A DNA stretch of 64,000 nt from the sequence record NC_070984.1. One strand, 5' to 3'. This DNA is from Escherichia phage ES17. Each line of letters starts with the position of its first letter. Position 1 is the first letter of the stretch. This document shows, piece after piece, positions 30,201 to 54,568 of the stretch. The position numbers and the translations under genes are program-made. Below the pieces are notes generated by a model, which was not told the DNA's origin, searched no databases, and was given only the letters and a program-made list of their open reading frames with translations.

Positions 30201-30650
30201 TCAACTCTCTTCTAGTATAATCCTGTACATTGCTTCCTGAGCATCTTTCATATCTACATATGGACCAAGCACCTCACTATCTTTTCTGATGAACCAATCA
30301 CCTTCTTTGAATATCAGAGATACGTGAACATCTTTATTATTTGCTTTGACTGCTCGCCCCCATGCTGGGTTATGTCGGGATAAATTATCAATATGACAAT
30401 TATCAGTGCGCCCATCCAGATGGTGTAAATAAGATTGAGGCCACTGGCCTGTCTCTTTATACCATACGGCTTTCTTCAATTCAACAATGCCACATGGTAG
30501 TCCTATGTATAGGATATTAGGCTGTAAGCTAAAATTATACCACTTAGATGTGAAAGGGATTAGAGGTTCCCTTTTGGTGAAAAACATCGGCCCCTCTCGA
30601 ATGTATTCTAGACTATCTATACACTTCAAAATCTTTTCACTATAAAGCAT
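30201..30650 (-). CDS. HNH-family homing endonuclease-like protein
   Basis: HHLDGRTDNCHIDNL fits the HH.DG...N....NL HNH pattern. Confidence 0.5.
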   Translation of the reverse strand: MLYSEKILKCIDSLEYIREGPMFFTKREPLIPFTSKWYNFSLQPNILYIGLPCGIVELKKAVWYKETGQWPQSYLHHLDGRTDNCHIDNLSRHNPAWGRAVKANNKDVHVSLIFKEGDWFIRKDSEVLGPYVDMKDAQEAMYRIILEES

Positions 30651-31390
30651 TAACTGTTTACCTTTTCCATAGCTTTAACAATAGCTTTACAGAAACCAGA
30701 ACGAACAATGTCATCCGATTCGCCGTCTACAATCTCAGCGAACTCATACAGATCATGTTCATCAATAAAGTTAGTAGCCCAAGTAAGACCGCTCTCACGA
30801 CCACGCATATCATGCTGGTTAGTATCACCCATGCAGAACAGCTGAGAGGTTTCTCCCAATCGAGTCATGATTGAGAAGGCTTCATCTTTAGTGGTGTTCT
30901 GGAACTCATCAACAATAACAATAGCATCATTGAAAGAACGACCACGGAGATATTCCAGAGGTACGAACTCGATGTTACTGTTACCGAGCTGGCATTCATA
31001 GAACCCCTTACCATATCGCTGAGTAATAACATCAATGATAGGCATCAGGTAAGGTTCAAACTTCTCACGCATTCCTCCCGGAAGTAACCCAAGAGAGTTG
31101 CCCATGCCGACAGAAGGGCGACTCAGAATGATCTTCTGAATCTTACCGCTCTTCAGTGCATCAATAACTGTGGAAGTGATTACAAAGGTCTTACCACAGC
31201 CCGCAGGAGCGTCTGTGAACACAACTTGTTTAGTCTTAATAGCATTGAGTAGCTCAGACTGAAACTGGTTCTGAGGGACTACAGGCTTTGCTAAAACCAC
31301 CTCTTCATACTCTCGCTTACCTTTACGAGTAACAAGTGCTTCCCGACGAAGGTCTTTCCGTGATTCTTTCCGTGATTGACGACGACTCAT
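30650..31390 (-). CDS. phoH: PhoH-like ATPase
   Basis: Walker A FTDAPAGCGKTFV, Walker B VIVDEFQN. Confidence 0.8.
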   Translation of the reverse strand: MSRRQSRKESRKDLRREALVTRKGKREYEEVVLAKPVVPQNQFQSELLNAIKTKQVVFTDAPAGCGKTFVITSTVIDALKSGKIQKIILSRPSVGMGNSLGLLPGGMREKFEPYLMPIIDVITQRYGKGFYECQLGNSNIEFVPLEYLRGRSFNDAIVIVDEFQNTTKDEAFSIMTRLGETSQLFCMGDTNQHDMRGRESGLTWATNFIDEHDLYEFAEIVDGESDDIVRSGFCKAIVKAMEKVNS

Positions 31391-33910: not shown

Positions 33911-34522
33911 TTAGTAAGACACGTCACCACTTGAATGGGACATGTTGCTCTTGACGAAGTAGCAATACTTGCCAAGACCTTCATTAATTTCTTGAAGCAT
34001 ACTCTGATCGACAGGGTAGGTGGCTAAATCACCATCAAACTCATCCATCTTCTCAATAATACACATCAAGGTCATGCACATATCAGAGAGCATACCGTCC
34101 ATGTCTAGATCAGCGTTACCCTCTGAGAACCAAGCATGAGAGAGGTAGTTAGCTGCTGTAGCATCCACTTTAACACAGTGGTAACGCATACGTTCAGCAA
34201 TACGATCTCCTACCTGTCGTGCGTAATCTTCCAGCTCATCAAACATACCATGAACACCCTGAAATCCTGCACCAGAGACGTTCCAGTGGTAGTTTTTAGC
34301 TTTGATATGCAAGAGTTCCATGTTAGCTTGTAAGCAGCTCAGGATGTGTTCTAGGCTGTTTGCACTAATCATGCCTTGCATTGTTTCAAGGCGAGAGATT
34401 GAAAGCTCAGACCGGTCTAACATACTATAACTGTCACGACCAATCTCAGGTAAATCAAAGACATTCTTATGCATTTGGGTTTTCTCCATCAAGTTCAACT
34501 GAATTAGCAACATTACGTGCAA
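33911..34522 (-). CDS. Dps / ferritin-like protein
   Basis: KNYHWNVSGAGFQGVHGMFDELEDYARQVGDRIAERM matches the Dps ferroxidase-site helix pattern. Confidence 0.65.
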   Translation of the reverse strand: MHVMLLIQLNLMEKTQMHKNVFDLPEIGRDSYSMLDRSELSISRLETMQGMISANSLEHILSCLQANMELLHIKAKNYHWNVSGAGFQGVHGMFDELEDYARQVGDRIAERMRYHCVKVDATAANYLSHAWFSEGNADLDMDGMLSDMCMTLMCIIEKMDEFDGDLATYPVDQSMLQEINEGLGKYCYFVKSNMSHSSGDVSY

Positions 34523-35754: not shown

Positions 35755-36264
35755 CTATCTTTCATCCACATTAAAGGATAGGTGAAGCCTACTTCTCATA
35801 GACTTCGCTAGGAGTTTTGCCTCTTCAAGAGTTTTCACTCCATATACAGACTCACGTTTACCATCTTTTTGAATAGATACACAGAATGTCCCGCCCTTCT
35901 CTTGGTAGACATTCTTAACTCCTAGTTTGTTATCAACCCTTGTCTTAGCATTCTGACTGTTCTCAGAGTGATAGCACTTTCTCAGGTTAGTTTCTTCTAG
36001 GTTTTCTCTGTTACCATCGGCATGATCTATTTGATATTCATCCGATAAATCCTCACCAGTATAAAGAACAAAAAGAATCCTATGATTGTGGACATGAACT
36101 CCTCCTAAGGGAATTTGATAATATCCATCTTTTGTGAGCTTGCCAGCAGGTTTACCTACTATATCATTAGCAAACTTACTAGGCTTCCTTTTCCAAGAAA
36201 GCCCTGAAGGTGATGACATGTCTATGTTAAAGAGATCAACTACTTCATCATAGCATATCAGCAT
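35755..36264 (-). CDS. HNH homing endonuclease with AP2-like domain
   Basis: YQIDHADGNRENLEETNL HNH motif; start placed at internal Met to avoid 128-nt overlap with dcd. Confidence 0.7.
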   Translation of the reverse strand: MLICYDEVVDLFNIDMSSPSGLSWKRKPSKFANDIVGKPAGKLTKDGYYQIPLGGVHVHNHRILFVLYTGEDLSDEYQIDHADGNRENLEETNLRKCYHSENSQNAKTRVDNKLGVKNVYQEKGGTFCVSIQKDGKRESVYGVKTLEEAKLLAKSMRSRLHLSFNVDER

Positions 36265-36802
36265 GATTTGTTCCACCAAAAGCTTTTGTTGGCCCTTGTT
36301 GGTTATTATATGAACCTTTCGTTGCGTAGCTGTCCTCTTCGGATGAAGAGTGTTTAAAGAATTCCATTTGACCAATACGCATTCCCGGTTTGATCAGCAG
36401 AGAGTGATGCTGTAGAACATTCTTGAATTCCATAGTTAACTGGCTACCATGCCAACCGCCGTCAGCATGACCAGCGTGCATGTGCTCTAAGAAACAACGA
36501 CCAACAGTGGACCGTAGCATGAAATCGCAGCTAATATTATCTGGCAGATTGAATGTCTCCATTGTATGAGCCAAGAAACACTCACCCGGTTTGATCACTA
36601 ACCCTTCCTCTGGAATCATAACCTCATTGAAGTTAGGAGATTCTTTAGCAGAGATATCAACAACCCCGTTAGCTGCACCTTCCATTAGAACGCGATCTCC
36701 AATACGAACATCAATGCTGGAGGAATTAACAGCTGAGTGTGGTGCATCAATAACACCATCATCAATTAATTTATGTAACTCTGGACTTCCTAGTAAACTC
36801 AT
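36248..36802 (-). CDS. dcd: dCTP deaminase (dUTPase superfamily)
   Basis: 184 aa; SSIDVRIGD ... GHADGGWHGSQLTMEF ... GMRIGQMEF matches Dcd pattern. Confidence 0.7.
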   Translation of the reverse strand: MSLLGSPELHKLIDDGVIDAPHSAVNSSSIDVRIGDRVLMEGAANGVVDISAKESPNFNEVMIPEEGLVIKPGECFLAHTMETFNLPDNISCDFMLRSTVGRCFLEHMHAGHADGGWHGSQLTMEFKNVLQHHSLLIKPGMRIGQMEFFKHSSSEEDSYATKGSYNNQQGPTKAFGGTNHADML

Positions 36803-36811
36803 TCTTATTCC

Positions 36812-38182
36812 TTAGTTATTTGTTTCCATGTCAAAAGAGATTCCACGACCCGCTTCATCGGCAAACCGAACTGTACGGGTTTGAGGTTCTAATACTTCAG
36901 GGTTGTTAGCAATAAAGCGATCAGCGAGACTATCTCCCAAATCTTGTTCCATACCTTCATCAGTCCAGATAACACGAGAAGGGGCGTTGATATCACCAAC
37001 AGCGAAACCCTGACCAGAGAACTGACGTGCGCTAACAGTTAAGCCGTTTGGTCGACCACGAGAGGGTCTAGCCATCCATCGCTCCATAGAATCACTTGTA
37101 ATACCAAGAGCTTCTTCAAAAGATGTTCTACGAGTAGGGCTTTCTCTTCGTGACTCTTGTGCTCGACGCATTGCAGGGGCTACAAACACCCCTTCAATTG
37201 CATTGTGTCGGTTAGGTTCCTCTTCTCGACCAAGCAGATCACCACCCGTGTTAGTCGTTAAATTTGTCAACCCCTCAGACCAATACGCATGAATCTGACC
37301 AGAACCGTGAAGACTAGACATAATCTGAATCTCTTCATAAGGGATTCCAAAGAATCGACTCATGTCTCGGTTAACACAATATAGAGCACTTGTTGTATCT
37401 TCAATAAGAGAAACCTGACCTAATCCATTGACTAGATGACTAACTGGCTGAGGTGTGGGAAGATATCGAGTTTGGGCCATGTATTGATGCGCAACTGCTG
37501 GAGAGGAAAATCTCAACACTTGTGAGTTAGGCCACTTCTTGTGAACATACCTGATTTCACGACTAGAGACAACCACTGGACAAGGGGAAGTCATAGCCAA
37601 ATATCCGTGAGAAGTCATGAATAAGTTGTCAAGAGTCATCGCACCACGGCACATCATAGGAAAATTATCCAATACCTCTTCAATAGAAGTAGGATAATTA
37701 AACATGAATTGGATACGAACCCCATTCCACTGAAACTCAATAATATCAGTGAATGTTAATTGAGAACCCCCAGCATAGGATTCGTTTGTAGCTTCAGCAA
37801 GAAGTGATGCATATTCAATATCTTGTGACTCTAGCCATTCCTTCACATTACTTTCAATCTCCCGTCCAAGCTCTTGCCAACGATCAGTTGGGATGAAAGT
37901 GTTTTGAGTTCTTGGTGTTTGTCCTCTGACAATAAAGATATCAATGTCATGTGGAGCTATGTTATTAAGGACAGCATCACGAACAGCCCCACCAGTAATG
38001 ATGGGACAGATACCATCTGGAATCAAGTTGTTGTTAATCAACTGTTCAATGAAGTGACGACCAACAGTGATATCAGGTTGTTGAGCAACCTTATCTTCAA
38101 TTTGGTTAATCGGGATAACAATCATTTTACATTTTCCAATATAATGAAGGTGGGTCGTAAGGGTCAAATCCCGTGAGTTCAC
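36812..38182 (-). CDS. Class II nucleotidyltransferase (CCA-adding / poly(A) polymerase head-domain family)
   Basis: [23 protein letters not shown] = GGxVRD ... DxD motif; start likely internal near 38125. Confidence 0.55.
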
Positions 38183-38684
38183 ACAAGAAAAGATAAACCT
38201 TAACAGTTAAGTTAACGTCCTGTTCACAATAAGTAAACATATCTTCAGTGAAAGCATCCCATGCTTCCTCTTGCTCACCATAATCGCCCTTAAGTTCTCC
38301 TAAGAACTCACCCCACTGCTTCAAACCATGACCCCTTGGGCCACGTCTAGGGTCGCCTTTCGGATACTCAGGACTGTCACCAATACGGTCAGGTTTAAGA
38401 TATCGACTAAGACATAAAGTGTCGAAGACGTTAAAACGATAGTTAATCAGATTGGGATACATCTTCTTCAGAGCACAAAGGTCGAAGTCAATAATATTGT
38501 GACCCACCAGTACATCTGCTTCTGTAAGTTTACGAATCCCATCTTCAATTTGGTGAGGCCGATAGCCCCACCTTTCACCAGTTTCAACATCGAAGATATA
38601 AATACACCATACTTTAGTTATGTCATCGTACAGTGCATTACTCTCGATATCGAATGCAAACACTTTCTTCTTTTTCTTTACCAC
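38127..38684 (-). CDS. 3'-5' exonuclease domain protein, T7 gp5 N-terminal homolog
   Basis: [37 protein letters not shown] parallel T7 DNAP exo motifs SDIEANAL / HNGHKYD / DTLVLSRL / YNVQDVVVT. Confidence 0.8.
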
Positions 38685-40494: not shown

Positions 40495-40698
40495 TTAGTA
40501 GAACGAACGAATTTCATCCCACACTTGTTCCTGTTCTTTCCTATAAAAAGAAAGTTGGGTCTTGAACATCTCCACTGATGATTCAAAGTTTTTGGTTTGT
40601 GCAGCTTCAACGAAACGTTCATGTCGGTTGATTTTGCACCGTAGCATTAAATACTTGGCTTCAAGTCTCCGAAGAGCCTGCCTTTTCTCAAGATTCAC
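40495..40698 (-). CDS. Hypothetical protein
   Basis: 67 aa track ORF. Confidence 0.3.
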   Translation of the reverse strand: MNLEKRQALRRLEAKYLMLRCKINRHERFVEAAQTKNFESSVEMFKTQLSFYRKEQEQVWDEIRSFY

Positions 40699-41107
40699 TT
40701 TTCAGATACTCTGACCAGTCGCCAGATTCAACCAGAATATCTTGTTCTTCGTCGATATGATAAATCCAAGCGATAACAGTTTCACCTGAGTCCATCTTAA
40801 CAGCAATCTGAGTACGCTGATAGAAGCTGTCTTCAGGGCTACGTTTGTTGTAACCTTCCAGACGGTCATACGGACCTTCCAGACCTGCTTTGTCAGTAGC
40901 AAACACTTCTACACGAACAGGCTTATTGTTATTGCTGTGTGCGAGAGAGATGCTCGGGAAGTAGGAACCACCGTAACGGAACAGATCGAAGTTGTCTTCA
41001 GTCCAACCTTCACCAATTGACTTAGCACCAGCTCGGTCATTAACTAAATAGTTAGCTTGACCACGACGAAGAGAACCATAAGTTGCTACGTAAATTACTT
41101 CTGACAT
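40688..41107 (-). CDS. Gamma-glutamyl cyclotransferase-like (AIG2/GGCT fold) protein
   Basis: YVATYGSLRRGQANY N-terminal signature plus ...YDRLEGY...YQRTQIAV...VIAWIYH. Confidence 0.65.
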   Translation of the reverse strand: MSEVIYVATYGSLRRGQANYLVNDRAGAKSIGEGWTEDNFDLFRYGGSYFPSISLAHSNNNKPVRVEVFATDKAGLEGPYDRLEGYNKRSPEDSFYQRTQIAVKMDSGETVIAWIYHIDEEQDILVESGDWSEYLKSES

Positions 41108-41176
41108 TATCTATACCTTTGTTGGTTTGTTTAGTTTATCCGAACTAGCCTCATCTTTCGAAGAGGCTAAAGCAGA

Positions 41177-41362
41177 TTACTCTGTAATAAAGATTTTGAT
41201 TACACCGCAGATTGCTGCACTTTCAAACACTGCAACAGCTTCACTTCCTTGAAAGAAGGCCACTTTGCCATCAGAGAAGTTAAACATGTCAGCATCGAGG
41301 TCCATTGCTCGCATCTCACCAGCTGCATTGGTATCTTTAAACAGAACTTTATACTTATTCAC
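41177..41362 (-). CDS. Hypothetical protein
   Basis: 61 aa track ORF. Confidence 0.3.
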   Translation of the reverse strand: MNKYKVLFKDTNAAGEMRAMDLDADMFNFSDGKVAFFQGSEAVAVFESAAICGVIKIFITE

Positions 41363-41607
41363 AGATATGTTACTCCCTTGTCTTGTTGTGCTTCAGTGAT
41401 GATACGCTCTACACATTCCATAGAGTACTTATCACCACGTTTTAGGAAAGTTACAATTGCAGAGAATTGATTACCAATCATTCGCTGATTAGTAATACCC
41501 AACTCCTCACACAATTTACGCAACTCTTTACGAGAGCCTACAATAAGAGGCTCTTTTTGTTCCATCATTCCATTTTGTACTAGATCTTCCAATGAAAACA
41601 TATCCAT
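41359..41607 (-). CDS. Hypothetical protein
   Basis: 82 aa track ORF. Confidence 0.3.
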   Translation of the reverse strand: MDMFSLEDLVQNGMMEQKEPLIVGSRKELRKLCEELGITNQRMIGNQFSAIVTFLKRGDKYSMECVERIITEAQQDKGVTYL

Positions 41608-41613
41608 ATATCC

Positions 41614-42816
41614 TTAGTAGTTTACAACAGTGCCATCATTCAGGGTAAGGTTATTAATCTGCAACACACGACCAAGCTGACGATCACTAATTGGTGCGTT
41701 CCATCCAGAGCGGTAGAAGTTACGACCACAGAAGAACAAGATCACATTACTTGCTACAGTTGAACCATTTTCAGGATGCTTGATGTTAGCGATATAATAA
41801 CCACGACGCAGATTACGACGGGTTACAGGGTTGATCTCTAACCCTTGCTCTTCAACCTGCATTATTTCAGGGACAGGCTCCGAAGACTCTTCAACAACTG
41901 GCTCGGAGCTTTCCGCTGATAGTGCGTAATCCTCATCACCTGCTGGTGAAAATGTTTCTTCCACTTCTTCCACGGGAAGTTCGTATGCAACACGGTAGTC
42001 AGGCTCAACACCAGAGAAGCTCTTAACAAACTCAACGATGTTGTGAGTGTAGGTTTCCAGAGTTGTGCCAGTCAGGCCCGGAGCTGTATTAACTTCCAGA
42101 ACCCAAGCGTTAGTACCTTTGCTAATCAGGTCAACAGCACCGAAGTTCAAACCCAGAGCAGATACAGCTTTGTGAGCTTGAATCAGAACTTGATCAGGAG
42201 GCGCTTCAGTGAAGGAGTTAGAATAAACCCAACCAGTATGATGGTTACGAATATCTTCACGATAGCTTTCCAGTTCACGATAACCATTACGACGAATCTT
42301 CTTCTGAACGTAAGTGATAACACCTTCGAACACATGAACACGCCATTCACGACGTGGGCCTTGGATGCCTTTGGTGTACAGAGGAGCATCCGCAACACCT
42401 TCTCGCGGAAGACGAACAGTGATCCCCTCACCAGAGTGACCAGTCAAGGTTGCACGTTCATAAACAATTTCATTCCGGTTCCAGTTCTGAGCTACTTCAC
42501 GATCTACGGTGTATTCAACAGTTTTGACTTCAGCTAAACGCAGTGCGTTAAATGCTGCAACTTTGTTAGCGGCTCGGTTCAAGGCAACCACAGAGTTCAA
42601 TACAGTTGCACCGCCAAAGAAAGAATCATTATATCGACGGTTTCCGTAGTTGACAACAATATCACCAACTCGAGAACGATAACGAGAACCCTCTGATACC
42701 AGAGACATTACGTTAGCATTTAGTCGAAGTTCCTGAATCTTAGTGTTAATTGCAGAAGTAAGTTCACGAACTGAATCAGAAGGGCCATAAGGAAGAACAC
42801 GGATACGAGTAGTCAT
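41614..42816 (-). CDS. ATP-grasp enzyme
   Basis: C-terminal AVDLISKGTNAWVLEVNTAPGLTG matches ATP-grasp E-x-N Mg/ATP-binding motif. Confidence 0.6.
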   Translation of the reverse strand: MTTRIRVLPYGPSDSVRELTSAINTKIQELRLNANVMSLVSEGSRYRSRVGDIVVNYGNRRYNDSFFGGATVLNSVVALNRAANKVAAFNALRLAEVKTVEYTVDREVAQNWNRNEIVYERATLTGHSGEGITVRLPREGVADAPLYTKGIQGPRREWRVHVFEGVITYVQKKIRRNGYRELESYREDIRNHHTGWVYSNSFTEAPPDQVLIQAHKAVSALGLNFGAVDLISKGTNAWVLEVNTAPGLTGTTLETYTHNIVEFVKSFSGVEPDYRVAYELPVEEVEETFSPAGDEDYALSAESSEPVVEESSEPVPEIMQVEEQGLEINPVTRRNLRRGYYIANIKHPENGSTVASNVILFFCGRNFYRSGWNAPISDRQLGRVLQINNLTLNDGTVVNY

Positions 42817-42818
42817 TG

Positions 42819-43043
42819 TTAGATACCTTTAAGTTTAAGAATTTCGTTACGAGTTTTTTGAATCTGAGCTTCAATTTCGAAGTAGTCATTGAACGCATCG
42901 TTCTCTACTTCATCGGATGGTGCATCAATCAGACCGAAAGCGAACGGATACAGCTTTCGCTGCTCCGTTACCAATTCGATATGAACTCCTATGTAATACT
43001 GTAGGAGAGTAATCTTCGGTTTCTTAGGAACCAGATTTGACAT
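42819..43043 (-). CDS. Hypothetical protein
   Basis: 74 aa track ORF inside operon. Confidence 0.3.
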   Translation of the reverse strand: MSNLVPKKPKITLLQYYIGVHIELVTEQRKLYPFAFGLIDAPSDEVENDAFNDYFEIEAQIQKTRNEILKLKGI

Positions 43044-43257
43044 GAGGTTCTACCTTAATGCCTTTGATTTTTACATAATCAGCAAGCACGTTGTTGATCA
43101 CCGTTGGGAAAGGAACCTCAACCTGTGTTTCAAGTACTTGACCAATACCAGCTTGCATCCACTTCTGGATTGCACGAAGGTTATCACATCCTGTGCTCGT
43201 CATCGGGATACGTCGAGTAGTTACAACGTTATCCAGCATCATCTTACGAATTTCCAT
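43024..43257 (-). CDS. Hypothetical protein
   Basis: 77 aa track ORF inside operon. Confidence 0.3.
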   Translation of the reverse strand: MEIRKMMLDNVVTTRRIPMTSTGCDNLRAIQKWMQAGIGQVLETQVEVPFPTVINNVLADYVKIKGIKVEPHVKSGS

Positions 43258-43259
43258 AC

Positions 43260-45290
43260 TTAACCTCTATTCAATGAACATTTAGGAGAATTACAATAAA
43301 CTTGATTCATAGAACCAAGCGTACAACTTTCAGCATCGCGCCACGGAATCTGCTTAAAACACTCTGAGCAGTATCCGAGGGTTGACCACATTGCTTTGGT
43401 GAAGTCAGTGCTTCGGTTTCCGTCGAAGCTGACGACAGTTTTGCGGAGAGCTGTTCGTGATTCAGGAAACACACCTGCTTTCTCAGCAGGTTCCTCCTTT
43501 TTTGGCTTAGTTGAGATTGCAAAAATACTGTTGCTACGTTTCTCAACATAAGCATCAACAACATCCTCCAGAGTGATGCCTGTCTGTTTCGCTGAGGAAG
43601 GTAATACAGTCATACGACCGATCATATCTTCAGTTACACGTAAAGCGAATTCAGGACGACGGGCGTTTGTTGTATCTGTTGCTTTAATCCAGACATAACC
43701 ATCTTTGATCGTAGCATTAGACACTTTCTTCTTTACTTCTACAGCGCAGACTTTACAGATATCTTCACCACGAAGACGACTAAGTTCATCATCGAACTCA
43801 TTCTCTGTTTTAACTTCACCGCAGATTTCACAAACACCAATAGGAGTTTCCTCCTCTTCTTCCTCTTTAGGTTTAGTCAAACCTTCCAGACATTCAGGAT
43901 GCCAATAGCACTGATATGCGAAGACTGCTTTAGGTGCATCCTTCCAATCAATGTGCTTATCACAACCACCACAATCACCATGAGAGTGCGCTTCCCAGAA
44001 TTTACGAGTGATAGTAACACCATTCTTGTTGACGAAACTATCATTCATATCAAAAGGGATATCATCATCGAAGTCAGCAGTAGTTGACTCAGGCTCCTTT
44101 TTCTCCAGAGATGGGTCAACAAAACGACCTGCTGTGATCACTAAACGGACCATAGCATTGACTTCGGAGATGCAGGATACTGTCCCACGGTAAACAATTT
44201 TAGGGTCTTTCAGGGCATCCTGATAAGCCTTAATGTCTACGTTATGAACATCACCTTCGATATACTCTTGAGATTTCTCATCGTAGATATAACCAATCAT
44301 CTTACCACGAGAAGGAACAGCACCGGCAGTTGCATAAGGAACAAACTCATGCGGAGTGATTTCCACAGTCATATCGCGGCGAATATCAATGTTTCGATCG
44401 CTTGCGATTTTGTTTTGACTTACCACTGCGTTTCTTCGACGAACGTCTGCCGCTGTCACACCCGGCTTCGTGTCGTAAGGATTGCTTGTACTGCTTTTTG
44501 AGGAACTTTGATAGTTGCTTTGGCTGTAATTGTTCGAGTAGTAATTGCCCCAACGATTGACTACCGTAAAAACCGGAAGCTCGTGGGCGACCTCTTCAAC
44601 CAGTGTCATGCTGTTATTAGACATGTCAAAGATATACTCTGTACCAACTTTACACTCAAAATGCTCATCAATACGGTTCTTGTGAGACTTCGAACGCTTC
44701 AGAATCCACATCAGCATATCTTCTTCAGAAGCGCCAAACCAATCTCTGTTACAACGTGCGAGATGGAAAGGACGCTCTTCGTTACGAATGATATGAAGGC
44801 GGTTATCAGAAGCATCATGCCAGATTAAGGTGAAAGCACCATCCAGCTTTTGAATAGTCTCTGCTGCACCAATAGTGTTAATAGAGTGGCAGATGTTCTC
44901 ACTATCTACCTCGAAGTTTTTACTGTCAGGTAACAGGTCTTGGTCCATCAAGGTTCCATTATGAACCAGAGTGATGTTACCATGTTGGAAAGGATGGGCG
45001 TTCTTGGCGTTAACTGCACCTTTCGTTGCATGACGGCTGTGACCAACAATCCATGAAGGTGCTACAGTGTAAGCTGTTTCACCAGTGGTGTGCTTCTTGT
45101 ACTCATCTTGTAGGATGAATGCGAAAGAAGGAAGAGCTTCTTTATAAGTGAAGACTTCCTTAGTACTTTTACGCTGACCAAAGATACCGGAGGAATGTTG
45201 TCCTCGGAATACTCCAGCATAAAAGAGTTGGTTAAATACGTCTAAATCAGTGCTTGACAGATTACCGCCAGCTAATACGATGCCACAAAT
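43260..45290 (-). CDS. Class-II (Ntn) glutamine amidotransferase domain fused to Cys-rich C-terminal region; apparent ATT initiation
   Basis: Frame open 113 codons upstream of track start; begins ATT-TGT: (I)CGIVLAGG, VFRGQHSSGIFG, VGHSRHATKG..NAHPF, LVHNGTL are GAT-II hallmarks; C-terminus has 4 CxxC pairs. Confidence 0.75.
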   Translation of the reverse strand: MCGIVLAGGNLSSTDLDVFNQLFYAGVFRGQHSSGIFGQRKSTKEVFTYKEALPSFAFILQDEYKKHTTGETAYTVAPSWIVGHSRHATKGAVNAKNAHPFQHGNITLVHNGTLMDQDLLPDSKNFEVDSENICHSINTIGAAETIQKLDGAFTLIWHDASDNRLHIIRNEERPFHLARCNRDWFGASEEDMLMWILKRSKSHKNRIDEHFECKVGTEYIFDMSNNSMTLVEEVAHELPVFTVVNRWGNYYSNNYSQSNYQSSSKSSTSNPYDTKPGVTAADVRRRNAVVSQNKIASDRNIDIRRDMTVEITPHEFVPYATAGAVPSRGKMIGYIYDEKSQEYIEGDVHNVDIKAYQDALKDPKIVYRGTVSCISEVNAMVRLVITAGRFVDPSLEKKEPESTTADFDDDIPFDMNDSFVNKNGVTITRKFWEAHSHGDCGGCDKHIDWKDAPKAVFAYQCYWHPECLEGLTKPKEEEEEETPIGVCEICGEVKTENEFDDELSRLRGEDICKVCAVEVKKKVSNATIKDGYVWIKATDTTNARRPEFALRVTEDMIGRMTVLPSSAKQTGITLEDVVDAYVEKRSNSIFAISTKPKKEEPAEKAGVFPESRTALRKTVVSFDGNRSTDFTKAMWSTLGYCSECFKQIPWRDAESCTLGSMNQVYCNSPKCSLNRG

Positions 45291-45293
45291 TTT

Positions 45294-45323
45294 CTAATCC
45301 ACCTGAAGGGTAAACCCTTTCAT
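45294..45323 (-). other. 9-codon upstream mini-ORF (MKGFTLQVD) ending 3 nt before GAT-II ATT codon
   Basis: ATG 45323 with AAAGG RBS; in-frame TAG at 45294-45296, then AAA, then ATT-TGT. Confidence 0.35.
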
Positions 45324-45369
45324 CTAATTAACCTTTAAATTGTGCCCCTTTATCAGAGGCACCCATTGA

Positions 45370-46473
45370 TTACAGCGCTTGCTCTAACTGATTTTCCAGA
45401 TGGTCTGGAATGTACCCTGTGATATTGCTATCACTGTGACCTGACTCACGTAGTAAGTCAAAAATAGCACGGATACGCTGTTCTGGAGCGTGTCTTACTT
45501 GAGATAGGTCTGCTGTACGAAGCATAACCAAAATCTCTTGGTACAAGTTGTTAGCGTTCCCTCGGACATACCCAAGGAAGCCATAGAAGTCTGACATAAG
45601 ACGTAAGTCAACAAGAGCCTCTCCGTTGGAGTTGGTTCGACGTAAACGAATACGACCAGACTGTTCTACTTCATGAGAACGGCAATACAAAACATCACGG
45701 GCCATACAATATCCTGAATGCAAATCAGATTCATCCAGATTGTAATCCAGAGGAAGGTAAGGAAGCATTGGGGCAAATCGTACAGTATTTAAGTGCTCAA
45801 TAAACTGATCATTGCTCATATCTGCGTTATCTAAAGCCAGCTTCTTCAACATCAAGAAGCGGTTAACCAGATTGAGAAGTTGACCACGTTTCCACTTAGG
45901 CTCACTGATACGGAACTCAATTGAACCGTATTGGGCAAGTGGCAGAAGGTTCAGAGATGTATATTTATCCCATGAACGAACCAGACGGTTGAAGAATTCT
46001 TCACCATCGTAGTTAAATGCGTCAGAGGCATTCATTACCTGTGCTTGTACCACTGCAAACGCAGGGCAGAAATTGCTACGGTAACGATGGTAGCCTGAAC
46101 ACTTGAACAGCATCTTTTCATAGAAGGTCCAAGCAAGGATGGTCTTCTTGAGGATATTACTATCAGCATCCCTCATATCCATATGAACGTGAGTAGAGCA
46201 ACGCCAAGTCCCCTCGGCGTGCGATTCAGCTACTGCTTCACTCAGGTTGTTGATAGCGTCTAACAACTCCTGTCCGTTGTAAGGTCGTGAACATACCATT
46301 TCACAACCGTTACGCAGGGAACCATCCTCTGTGCAATCCCACATATCTGCTTCGATATGTTCAGAACCTTCGAGTTCAAGTTCAATACCGACACCGCACT
46401 GAAGTGCAATTGAACTATGCGCCTCAGTTAAACGACCTTCTCGATATCCAAAAGTTTGCGCTACAGTTGTCAT
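45370..46473 (-). CDS. Glutamine-synthetase/GCS2-like amidoligase (carboxylate-amine ligase)
   Basis: GIELELEG, EDGSLRNGCE, THVHMD, GSIEFR motif series. Confidence 0.5.
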   Translation of the reverse strand: MTTVAQTFGYREGRLTEAHSSIALQCGVGIELELEGSEHIEADMWDCTEDGSLRNGCEMVCSRPYNGQELLDAINNLSEAVAESHAEGTWRCSTHVHMDMRDADSNILKKTILAWTFYEKMLFKCSGYHRYRSNFCPAFAVVQAQVMNASDAFNYDGEEFFNRLVRSWDKYTSLNLLPLAQYGSIEFRISEPKWKRGQLLNLVNRFLMLKKLALDNADMSNDQFIEHLNTVRFAPMLPYLPLDYNLDESDLHSGYCMARDVLYCRSHEVEQSGRIRLRRTNSNGEALVDLRLMSDFYGFLGYVRGNANNLYQEILVMLRTADLSQVRHAPEQRIRAIFDLLRESGHSDSNITGYIPDHLENQLEQAL

Positions 46474-47087
46474 AACGAATCCACCAACGTAATATTATAA
46501 TTGCTAAGGTTTTCAGAGATGTGATGAAAATGCTCCAGAAGTCGCATCGGTTGTTGACCATAAGAGTCACGAGGTGCTTCCAGATCTACCTGACCTACCA
46601 GTGCACCTTTATAATGCACTTTACCATCTGTAGGATTGATGTAAATATAACGAGTAACCAATCCATCAAATTCAGGATTGAACAGACTGTAAACCATTTC
46701 ACCAGAGATCGAACGACCAATTCCAGGAGCGTTTCGAATCTTGTTACCCATCAAACCCTTCGCTCTCTGACGAACAGGGTTGATATGAGTCCAGCTTACA
46801 GTGTTACCGTTATGGAACAGATAACCAACATCAGGTGATTCAAGAATCAAGGTTGGGTCGAACACTGGAATATTCATCGTAGTGTTTCGGAGATTCCCAT
46901 GCTCGTTCTTGTACCACTGCTCTACAACAAAATACAGAGCCTGTTCTGCTTCATGCGAGAAGTCATCGCTGCGGAAGTTACCGCTCTGCTCAACACCAAT
47001 CACAAAACACGGAAGGTTGATATTGCCTGCTCGTTTAGCAATCCATGTACCATTATAGTAATGAGAAAAATCAGCTACTAAGCTCAC
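46470..47087 (-). CDS. Hypothetical protein in amidoligase operon
   Basis: 205 aa; start overlaps upstream stop. Confidence 0.35.
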   Translation of the reverse strand: MSLVADFSHYYNGTWIAKRAGNINLPCFVIGVEQSGNFRSDDFSHEAEQALYFVVEQWYKNEHGNLRNTTMNIPVFDPTLILESPDVGYLFHNGNTVSWTHINPVRQRAKGLMGNKIRNAPGIGRSISGEMVYSLFNPEFDGLVTRYIYINPTDGKVHYKGALVGQVDLEAPRDSYGQQPMRLLEHFHHISENLSNYNITLVDSL

Positions 47088-47096
47088 GATAACCTC

Positions 47097-47903
47097 TTAT
47101 GCTACCTGAAGGAGTTTGATCTGCTGGTCAGCTTCTTTAACGTTGTTCCCGTTAATGATTTCATGAAGCTTCTCAATCGGAAGGCGAGAGTGCAATGCCA
47201 TCAGGGTGGACATATCACACTGCTGAACAACCTTGTCAACCTGATCGTAAACAAACTTACGGTTTTCACGATCACTAATCCAGAAGTTAGACAGAGAACG
47301 GTATTCAATACCATAGTCTTTATAACGGATTGCAGATGCTTTACCGTAGAGTTCTTTACGGCGAGTATCTTTGTCCATAATTACTGCTGGGAGAGACAGG
47401 AAGTAGTCACACAACACACCCAGCATCATCTGAGTTTGCAGAGTGATATCCAAAGCACCAACTACGCCAAGATGTACGTGACCACCGGCAGTACGAAGTC
47501 CCTTATTCTGAGAAGTCGGGGATGGGTTTTTCTGACCAGTGAAGGCGTTGAAATCAGGAGTGCACCCGAAGATGAACGCTGATTCATTAAAGGTCTTCAT
47601 TTCTTCTTCGGTGAAGATGTGAGAGCTAACACCCGGAGCTGTTTCCATGTCCAGTTTGTTCAGGACATTATTGGTAAGATCGATACCACGTTGCATGTTA
47701 TCGTTAAACGCTTCAAAACCGCTCTGTGGGTCGATATCAAACTCAGCCAGTACGTTGTCCTCTTGAAGACGAACATCTTTAGCCAGAGTGATCTTATCGT
47801 CCTTAGAACAGCCTAATAGACCAGCTACAGAGGTGATGATACCATTACTGGTACGAACGAACATTTCAGGGTCAGAGCCGATAAGGAATTTGCGCTTAGT
47901 CAT
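47097..47903 (-). CDS. Second GS-like amidoligase (COOH-NH2 ligase type)
   Basis: IGSDPEMF, AEFDIDP, TAGGHVHLG, GIEYRS motif series. Confidence 0.45.
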   Translation of the reverse strand: MTKRKFLIGSDPEMFVRTSNGIITSVAGLLGCSKDDKITLAKDVRLQEDNVLAEFDIDPQSGFEAFNDNMQRGIDLTNNVLNKLDMETAPGVSSHIFTEEEMKTFNESAFIFGCTPDFNAFTGQKNPSPTSQNKGLRTAGGHVHLGVVGALDITLQTQMMLGVLCDYFLSLPAVIMDKDTRRKELYGKASAIRYKDYGIEYRSLSNFWISDRENRKFVYDQVDKVVQQCDMSTLMALHSRLPIEKLHEIINGNNVKEADQQIKLLQVA

Positions 47904-54491: not shown

Positions 54492-54568
54492 TGGCGCACC
54501 CTACAGGATTCGAACCTGTAACCGACGGATTAGAAATCCGATGTTCTGTCCAATTGAACTAAGGGCGC
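54492..54568 (-). tRNA. tRNA-Arg(UCU): tRNA-Arg (anticodon UCU), CCA encoded
   Basis: Manual cloverleaf: acceptor GCGCCCU/AGGGUGC (one G-U), D stem GUUC/GAAC, anticodon loop UUUCUAA, T arm ACAGG-UUCGAAU-CCUGU, discriminator G + CCA. Confidence 0.85.

Follow-up and report, generated by a model that had tools for sequence, protein, structure and literature searches.

Escherichia phage ES17 (sequence record NC_070984.1) carries a gene for a putative nucleotidyltransferase (NTase) within the 64,000-nucleotide stretch analysed here, which we call the window; all coordinates given for the window refer to features on its minus strand. An earlier note, made from the sequence alone, had placed an open reading frame (ORF) at 36812..38182 and described its product as resembling a CCA-adding enzyme. 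The ORF is indeed there, with a GTG start and 456 amino acids. However, the true start is almost certainly, to judge from the sequence, the ATG at 38125, since this codon lies one base past the TAA (38127-38129) of the upstream exonuclease gene, the alignment to the dedicated family phrog_12715 begins at residue 20 of the 456-aa ORF, and the N-terminus MI.IP is found in all homologues. The mechanical GTG start at 38182, in contrast, overlaps the 3' end of the exonuclease gene. The corrected coding sequence therefore occupies 36812..38125 and encodes 437 amino acids plus a stop, and residue numbers follow this protein throughout. We regard the gene as real and not a chance reading frame because of the match to phrog_12715 (E=2.4e-245), the presence of homologues in 96 phage records and the invariance of its motif residues. 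The protein is 100% identical to the copy in Escherichia phage myPSH1131 and 99.8% identical to that of SkaterBoy_Bas90, and, at 92-100% identity, the 3-kb surroundings match many phages of Escherichia and Shigella that belong to the phiEco32 group (Kuravirus, Gordonclarkvirinae). Both GenBank and PHROGs already list the gene as a nucleotidyltransferase; its function is uncharacterised.

When AlphaFold was supplied with a 26-sequence family alignment, residues 1-289 folded confidently. The conserved NTase core, a head followed by a neck-like helix, comprises residues 1-205 (37511..38125), with pLDDT mostly above 90 and a dN/dS of about 0.09, and alignability across the whole family is confined to residues 1 to ~205. 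The GGAVRD...DID signature reported in the earlier note is present, with motif A, GGAVRD, at residues 45-50 (37976..37993) and DID at residues 60-62 (37940..37948), where D60 and D62 are the metal-binding aspartates. G45, G46, R49, D50, D60 and D62 are unchanged in 26 relatives that share 20-40% identity, and the invariant positions further include F64, Y117, I128, Q139, P156, Y193 and K197. D127 (37745..37747), on the strand formed by residues 125-133, is D or E in 26/26 aligned relatives, and we infer from alignment and model that it is a candidate third catalytic carboxylate. The signature of the Pol-beta superfamily, hG[GS]-x9-13-Dh[DE]h together with a third carboxylate from an adjacent strand, is thus found in the protein. 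A helix with the sequence REIRYVHKK (residues 189-197; 37535..37561), in which Y193 and K197 are invariant, lines up with the LRxxKY helix of the phage protein Gad2 and with the LRAxRF helix of canonical class II enzymes. Because the motif residues are invariant and residue 127 is always acidic, the predicted enzyme looks catalytically competent.

Beyond the core lies a small helical subdomain (residues 206-289; 37259..37510) that ends in a conserved W/Y/F-S/T-x-G motif (W282), and many of the short homologues (274-320 aa) terminate just past this motif. The remainder, residues 290-437 (36815..37258), is a tail of about 150 amino acids that is found only in Kuravirus-type proteins and does not align from one genus to another. 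Residues 290-397 are predicted to be disordered, with pLDDT below 50, and the extreme C-terminus is modelled as a terminal hairpin at low confidence. Within the genus, the tail retains 78-97% identity per 20-residue block, the exception being 51% at residues 381-400, and its dN/dS of 0.17-0.51, against the much lower value of the core, shows that it is still under purifying selection there. A basic, nucleic-acid-binding tail was considered and rejected, as the net charge of the tail is -7 and it has zero lysines. We likewise rejected the idea that another gene overlaps this region, as the ORF list has none of at least 40 amino acids in another frame inside 36816-37870. As a separate observation, dS in the tail is 0.14-0.19 in comparisons with phiEco32 and L019, far below the 0.35-0.49 of the N-terminal core, which suggests either mosaic recombination or constraint at the nucleotide level.

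The sole Pfam match of the protein is to PolyA_pol (PF01743), below the gathering threshold (18.8 bits versus 23; E 0.002) and spanning profile positions 3-82 of 126, which leaves the last third of the head model uncovered. NCBIfam and PADLOC scans of the protein returned zero matches. The class II motif A pattern, GGxVRD...DxD, is present, and structural comparison ranks class II tRNA nucleotidyltransferases highest. Searches of the PDB, with both the protein and the family profile, reached CCA-adding enzymes via motif A alone (E 0.002), and the match of the family profile to these enzymes is limited to ~25-75 residues around that motif. Alignment of the family to the single E. coli Cca sequence with hhalign covered 23 columns, again motif A only, and alignment to the single PcnB sequence produced a spurious stretch with nothing meaningful in it.

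The other hallmarks of class II enzymes were sought by transitive profile-profile alignment, from the family through Gad2 to the canonical enzymes. Motif B (RRD), which recognises the ribose 2'-OH of the incoming NTP, was not found at the aligned position, where the Asp is replaced by the invariant P156, and the family has no conserved Arg-Arg ahead of it. Motif D (EDxxR), the protein template for C and A, was not found either; the equivalent segment, P181-C-P-V-V-V, has no conserved acidic residue or Arg. The LRAxRF-like helix that follows the missing EDxxR is kept, as R189..Y193..K196/197. We considered whether E190 and Y193 could represent the D and R of EDxxR, and rejected this, because the profile alignments put R189 and Y193 on the LRAxRF helix, downstream. 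As for the tRNA-binding body and tail domains, the Pfam scan gave no match to PF12627 or PF13735, and in the predicted structure the head is followed by only ~85 helical residues before the disorder of residues 290-397. Compared with the CCA-, A- and CC-adding enzymes and E. coli poly(A) polymerase I, the phage protein lacks RRD and EDxxR, and an inserted helix at residues 80-100, with the pattern WLED..IE..SLL, and the disordered C-terminal tail are its own. Poly(A) polymerase I, moreover, has an RNA/SrmB-binding domain (PF12627) and a basic C-terminus, in contrast to the acidic tail described above. The assignment of the fold to the class II lineage holds, and with it the class II part of the earlier description, but the resemblance to a CCA-adding enzyme does not. 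Since it has neither RRD for sensing ribose nor EDxxR for templating the base, and no tRNA-binding body or tail, the protein is, we are confident, a divergent, stand-alone class II/Gad2-like nucleotidyltransferase and not a CCA-adding enzyme.

Closer relatives are found among phage proteins. Gad2 is a 400-aa anti-Gabija protein of Bacillus phage SPbetaL7 and a predicted nucleotidyltransferase; its knockout makes SPbetaL7 sensitive to Gabija, a defence that is blocked by a Brevibacillus homologue (Yirmiya et al., bioRxiv 10.1101/2023.05.01.538930). Close homologues of the ES17 protein carry a precomputed match to PF26128 (Gad2), although the Kuravirus match is flagged weak (E 1e-5 to 1e-3). We built a Gad2 profile from ten homologues in Supplementary Table 10 of the Gad2 paper. 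With hhalign, the ES17 family aligned to three small proteins of ~200 aa that match PF26128 strongly, at Prob 98.1% and E 7.7e-14 over 181 columns, and to Gad2 itself at Prob 88.3% and E 2.9e-6 over 159 columns; the family and the small proteins together aligned to the Gad2 N-domain at Prob 96.6% and E 5.7e-10 over 165 columns, and Gad2 aligned to canonical class II enzymes at Prob 95.2% and E 2.9e-8, also over 165 columns. Like the ES17 protein, Gad2 is phage-encoded, has an N-terminal class II-like NTase domain and is without EDxxR. Its domain signatures are GG..., xNDxDhaF, an IQhh strand and PxxxSxLRxxKY, and the profile alignment between the two spans the whole domain. They differ at motif B, which reads FDFT in Gad2 and FPxMC in the ES17 family, and in setting, Gad2 loci being accessory anti-defence loci of temperate Bacillus phages whereas the ES17 gene is a core gene in a replication operon.

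Both Gad2 and the ES17 family also match phrog_1614, which appears as a hub. The ES17 protein, whose own best family is phrog_12715, matches it over residues 34-155 (E 1.3e-7, 32.6 bits) and a distant family member, P0067, does so at E 5e-9; the hub is matched further by Aeromonas phage phiAS7 gp03 (2e-37), Citrobacter phage Tr1 (8e-21), the small proteins (~1e-15) and Gad2 (1e-6 to 1e-8). Taking phiAS7 gp03, Providencia phage PS3, Tr1 and Pseudomonas phage Emajogi gp22 as examples, the phrog_1614 proteins share with the ES17 protein the head-plus-short-neck architecture (~200 aa) and similarity over the full domain, at the Prob of 98.1% and E of 7.7e-14 given above. Small NTases of T7-like phages were also returned by a Foldseek search of BFVD (E ~1e-6, TM 0.55). 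Identity to the Kuravirus family is ~15-25%, and the latter adds the ~85-residue helical subdomain and the ~150-residue tail. The phrog_1614 genes, too, lie among replication genes, adjoining DNA polymerase, ligase or primase. In phiAS7, a T7-like phage of Aeromonas (L020 3050-3661, L021), the gene lies between DNA ligase and DNA polymerase; this phage has no tRNA gene and encodes a polynucleotide kinase and a metallophosphoesterase, a gene set that would suit healing and sealing of nucleic-acid ends. Emajogi gp22 adjoins a primase/helicase and is cytotoxic when highly expressed; homologues of it are annotated 'Gad2 family'. With the Gordonclarkvirinae and the T7-like phages, therefore, unrelated phage lineages put such NTases among their replication genes. 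We conclude from these sequence comparisons that the ES17 protein probably stands as a sister branch in an assemblage of stand-alone, class II-like phage nucleotidyltransferases to which Gad2 also belongs; this falls short of showing orthology to Gad2.

The ES17 family is narrow. An exhaustive HMMER scan of 1.84 billion cluster representatives yielded 31 clusters at E<=1e-3, with 0 canonical CCA enzymes among them, and a profile search of 5.8 billion proteins recovered the same family, followed by weak matches (E>1e-3) to the small PF26128 proteins and to canonical class II enzymes. The gene's carriers are 96 of 50,697 phage records, all of them phages of E. coli or Shigella. Directly upstream is the DNA polymerase 3'-5' exonuclease subunit (38127..38684), whose stop is 1 nt ahead of the NTase start, and directly downstream the dCTP deaminase (36248..36802), which starts 9 nt past the NTase stop. 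All the contexts examined show the genes in the order primase/helicase, polymerase 3'-5' exonuclease subunit, NTase, dCTP deaminase, and the module further includes thioredoxin, a ferritin-like protein, ThyX and DNA polymerase. Since the same order recurs even in metagenomic relatives of only 27-33% identity, the gene belongs to the vertically inherited core of this phage supergroup; its translation is coupled to that of its neighbours.

Several other features of this region were observed. An HNH_3 homing-endonuclease ORF (35755-36375) overlaps the dCTP deaminase ORF at the latter's 3' end; this HNH_3 ORF is missing in many close relatives, where megablast matches start at query position 786 (window 36785), and from the sequence it looks like a mobile insertion. 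A PhoH-like ATPase (30650-31390) and the ferritin-like protein (33911-34522), annotated 'DNA binding protein' in relatives, share an operon with ThyX and thioredoxin. On the upstream side of the replication genes, a phiEco32-type cluster (40688-47903) contains a GGACT gamma-glutamyl cyclotransferase (40688-41107), a glutamine amidotransferase (43260-44951), an Amidoligase_2 (45370-46473) and a COOH-NH2 ligase (47097-47903), with several unannotatable ORFs in between.

We suggest that the ES17 protein is a stand-alone nucleotidyltransferase of the Pol-beta superfamily, with a fold of class II (CCA/poly(A)) ancestry, and that it belongs to a 'head plus short neck' assemblage found only in phages, with phrog_1614 as its hub, Gad2 as one branch and the phiEco32-like phrog_12715 as another. 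Given the invariant two-metal site (D60, D62 and the acidic residue 127) and GG/RD motif, it would be expected to take the nucleotidyl group of an NTP or dNTP and join it to a hydroxyl acceptor. The acceptor may be linked to replication, for example the 3' ends of DNA or primers, or a nucleotide, rather than tRNA, and the loss of RRD could allow the use of dNTPs. By analogy with the action of Gad2 against Gabija, the pay-off may be that the replicating linear phage DNA is shielded from host immunity that targets DNA. This replication-linked or anti-defence role is a tentative proposal, to which we give somewhat less than even weight. The explanation as a whole, class and role together, we hold about as strongly as we doubt it, which is a compromise between our confidence in the class assignment and our reserve about the role.

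Several points weigh against a Gad2-like role. The link to Gad2 is remote, at a Prob of 88% for the family alone, and hidden Markov model scores are no better to Gad2 (10-22 bits) than to canonical enzymes (27-29 bits), with motif A driving the scores. The C-terminal ~200-aa domain of Gad2 is not shared, the alignment ending at Gad2 residue ~196. The protein gave no match to the Gad2-proper PHROGs 18122, 27100, 16176 and 4400, and no Gad2-named homologue was among the top matches listed in the BFVD fold search. Anti-defence genes are usually accessory, and this gene is core. Synteny marks the gene as important but says little about what exactly it does: such guilt by association is weak, because the order is inherited vertically within one phage supergroup. 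We also dropped an attempt to establish functional linkage through the contexts of distant homologues, as all of these belong to one phiEco32-like module and provide no independent association. Our literature search found Gordonclarkvirinae and Gabija nowhere mentioned together, and a February 2026 review states that the mechanism of Gad2 has not yet been worked out.

One alternative is that the NTase acts with the dCTP deaminase in covalent base modification, helping to build or install a modified base behind restriction resistance. The BASEL study found the Gordonclarkvirinae strikingly resistant to restriction systems, and its authors speculated that the pairing of dCTP deaminase and NTase points to DNA modification. 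In the window (1-64000), six-base palindromes are strongly avoided, with a median observed/expected ratio of 0.38 versus 0.91 for non-palindromic hexamers, and nine hexamer palindromes are missing altogether, including CTGCAG and GAGCTC, each expected ~15 times. Nevertheless, 34 EcoRV (GATATC), 7 EcoRI (GAATTC) and 6 EcoKI sites are left, and site avoidance alone therefore does not explain the resistance, as a modified base might. The NTase gene adjoins that of the dCTP deaminase, with ThyX in the same operon, and base modification has been named in a review as one route by which phages escape Gabija. Against this, ThyX and dCTP deaminase suffice as an ordinary supply route for dTTP, related NTases of T7-like phages have no dCTP deaminase neighbour, and the literature we searched reports no modified base. 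Furthermore, we know of no DNA hypermodification pathway that uses a class II-type NTase. On balance, we consider base modification unlikely.

It is similarly unlikely that the enzyme nucleotidylylates a protein or small molecule, for example by AMPylation of a host or defence factor or as a step in a pathway with the amidoligases and the glutamine amidotransferase. The nearest folds are RNA 3'-end polymerases, the neck helix with its conserved basic residues is kept, and no partner or target gene was found to co-vary with the NTase. The addition of untemplated tails to host or phage RNAs, altering their stability, is improbable. Polyadenylation of RNA had been put forward as a possibility in the earlier note, and our results do not bear it out: the Pfam scan found no RNA-binding domain of the poly(A) polymerase type, the hhalign comparison with PcnB was uninformative, the tail is acidic and not basic, and the gene lies in an operon for DNA replication and nucleotide metabolism.

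Repair of tRNA 3' ends, in which the NTase would rebuild the CCA on tRNAs, from host or phage, that defence nucleases had trimmed, was the other function suggested earlier, and it fares a little worse; we think it quite improbable. In its favour are the motif A of class II type, the class II tRNA nucleotidyltransferases at the top of the structural matches, the putative end-repair genes that accompany the phrog_1614 NTase of phiAS7, and the phage's own tRNA gene. The last of these, a tRNA-Arg(UCU) at 54492..54568, does lie at about the distance the earlier note gave (16 kb), being 16.4 kb from the NTase gene, in an early region of small ORFs. However, the gene ends ...AGGGTGC-G-CCA, a discriminator G followed by the CCA, and with CCA already encoded no de novo addition is needed; we found no evidence that ties this tRNA to the NTase. 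The want of RRD, EDxxR and body and tail domains, the predicted disorder past residue 289 and the confinement of the CCA-enzyme profile match to motif A also argue against tRNA repair, as does the occurrence of a related NTase in phiAS7, a phage without a tRNA. E. coli, the host, already has Cca. Finally, a catalytically inactive structural or regulatory protein, which the loss of the ribose- and base-recognition motifs might suggest, is hardly credible when the metal-binding and GG/RD residues are all invariant over deep divergence and the core dN/dS is ~0.09.

Our main correction is that this gene should not be named a CCA-adding enzyme, and that there is no evidence of its link to the phage tRNA. 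To the existing nucleotidyltransferase label we add a place among stand-alone enzymes specific to phages, on a branch with ties to phrog_1614 and Gad2, together with a testable hypothesis of an anti-defence or DNA-linked role in a tractable phage-host pair. One version of that hypothesis, admittedly a long shot, is that this NTase and the Gad2/phrog_1614 assemblage covalently mark phage DNA, by adding nucleotides at its ends in an untemplated or non-canonical manner or by DNA nucleotidylation. If true, such a mark would account both for the resistance of Gordonclarkvirinae to restriction-modification despite abundant sites and for the ability of Gad2-type enzymes to blind systems that sense DNA ends, such as Gabija. 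The NTase could bear on why these phages, a widespread group of E. coli phages in therapeutic use, resist restriction. If the Gad2 link is functional, they would carry a Gad2-type counter-defence enzyme within their core replication operon, and the BASEL phages Bas86-94 on E. coli K-12 would offer a genetically tractable system for the mechanism of a Gad2-like nucleotidyltransferase.
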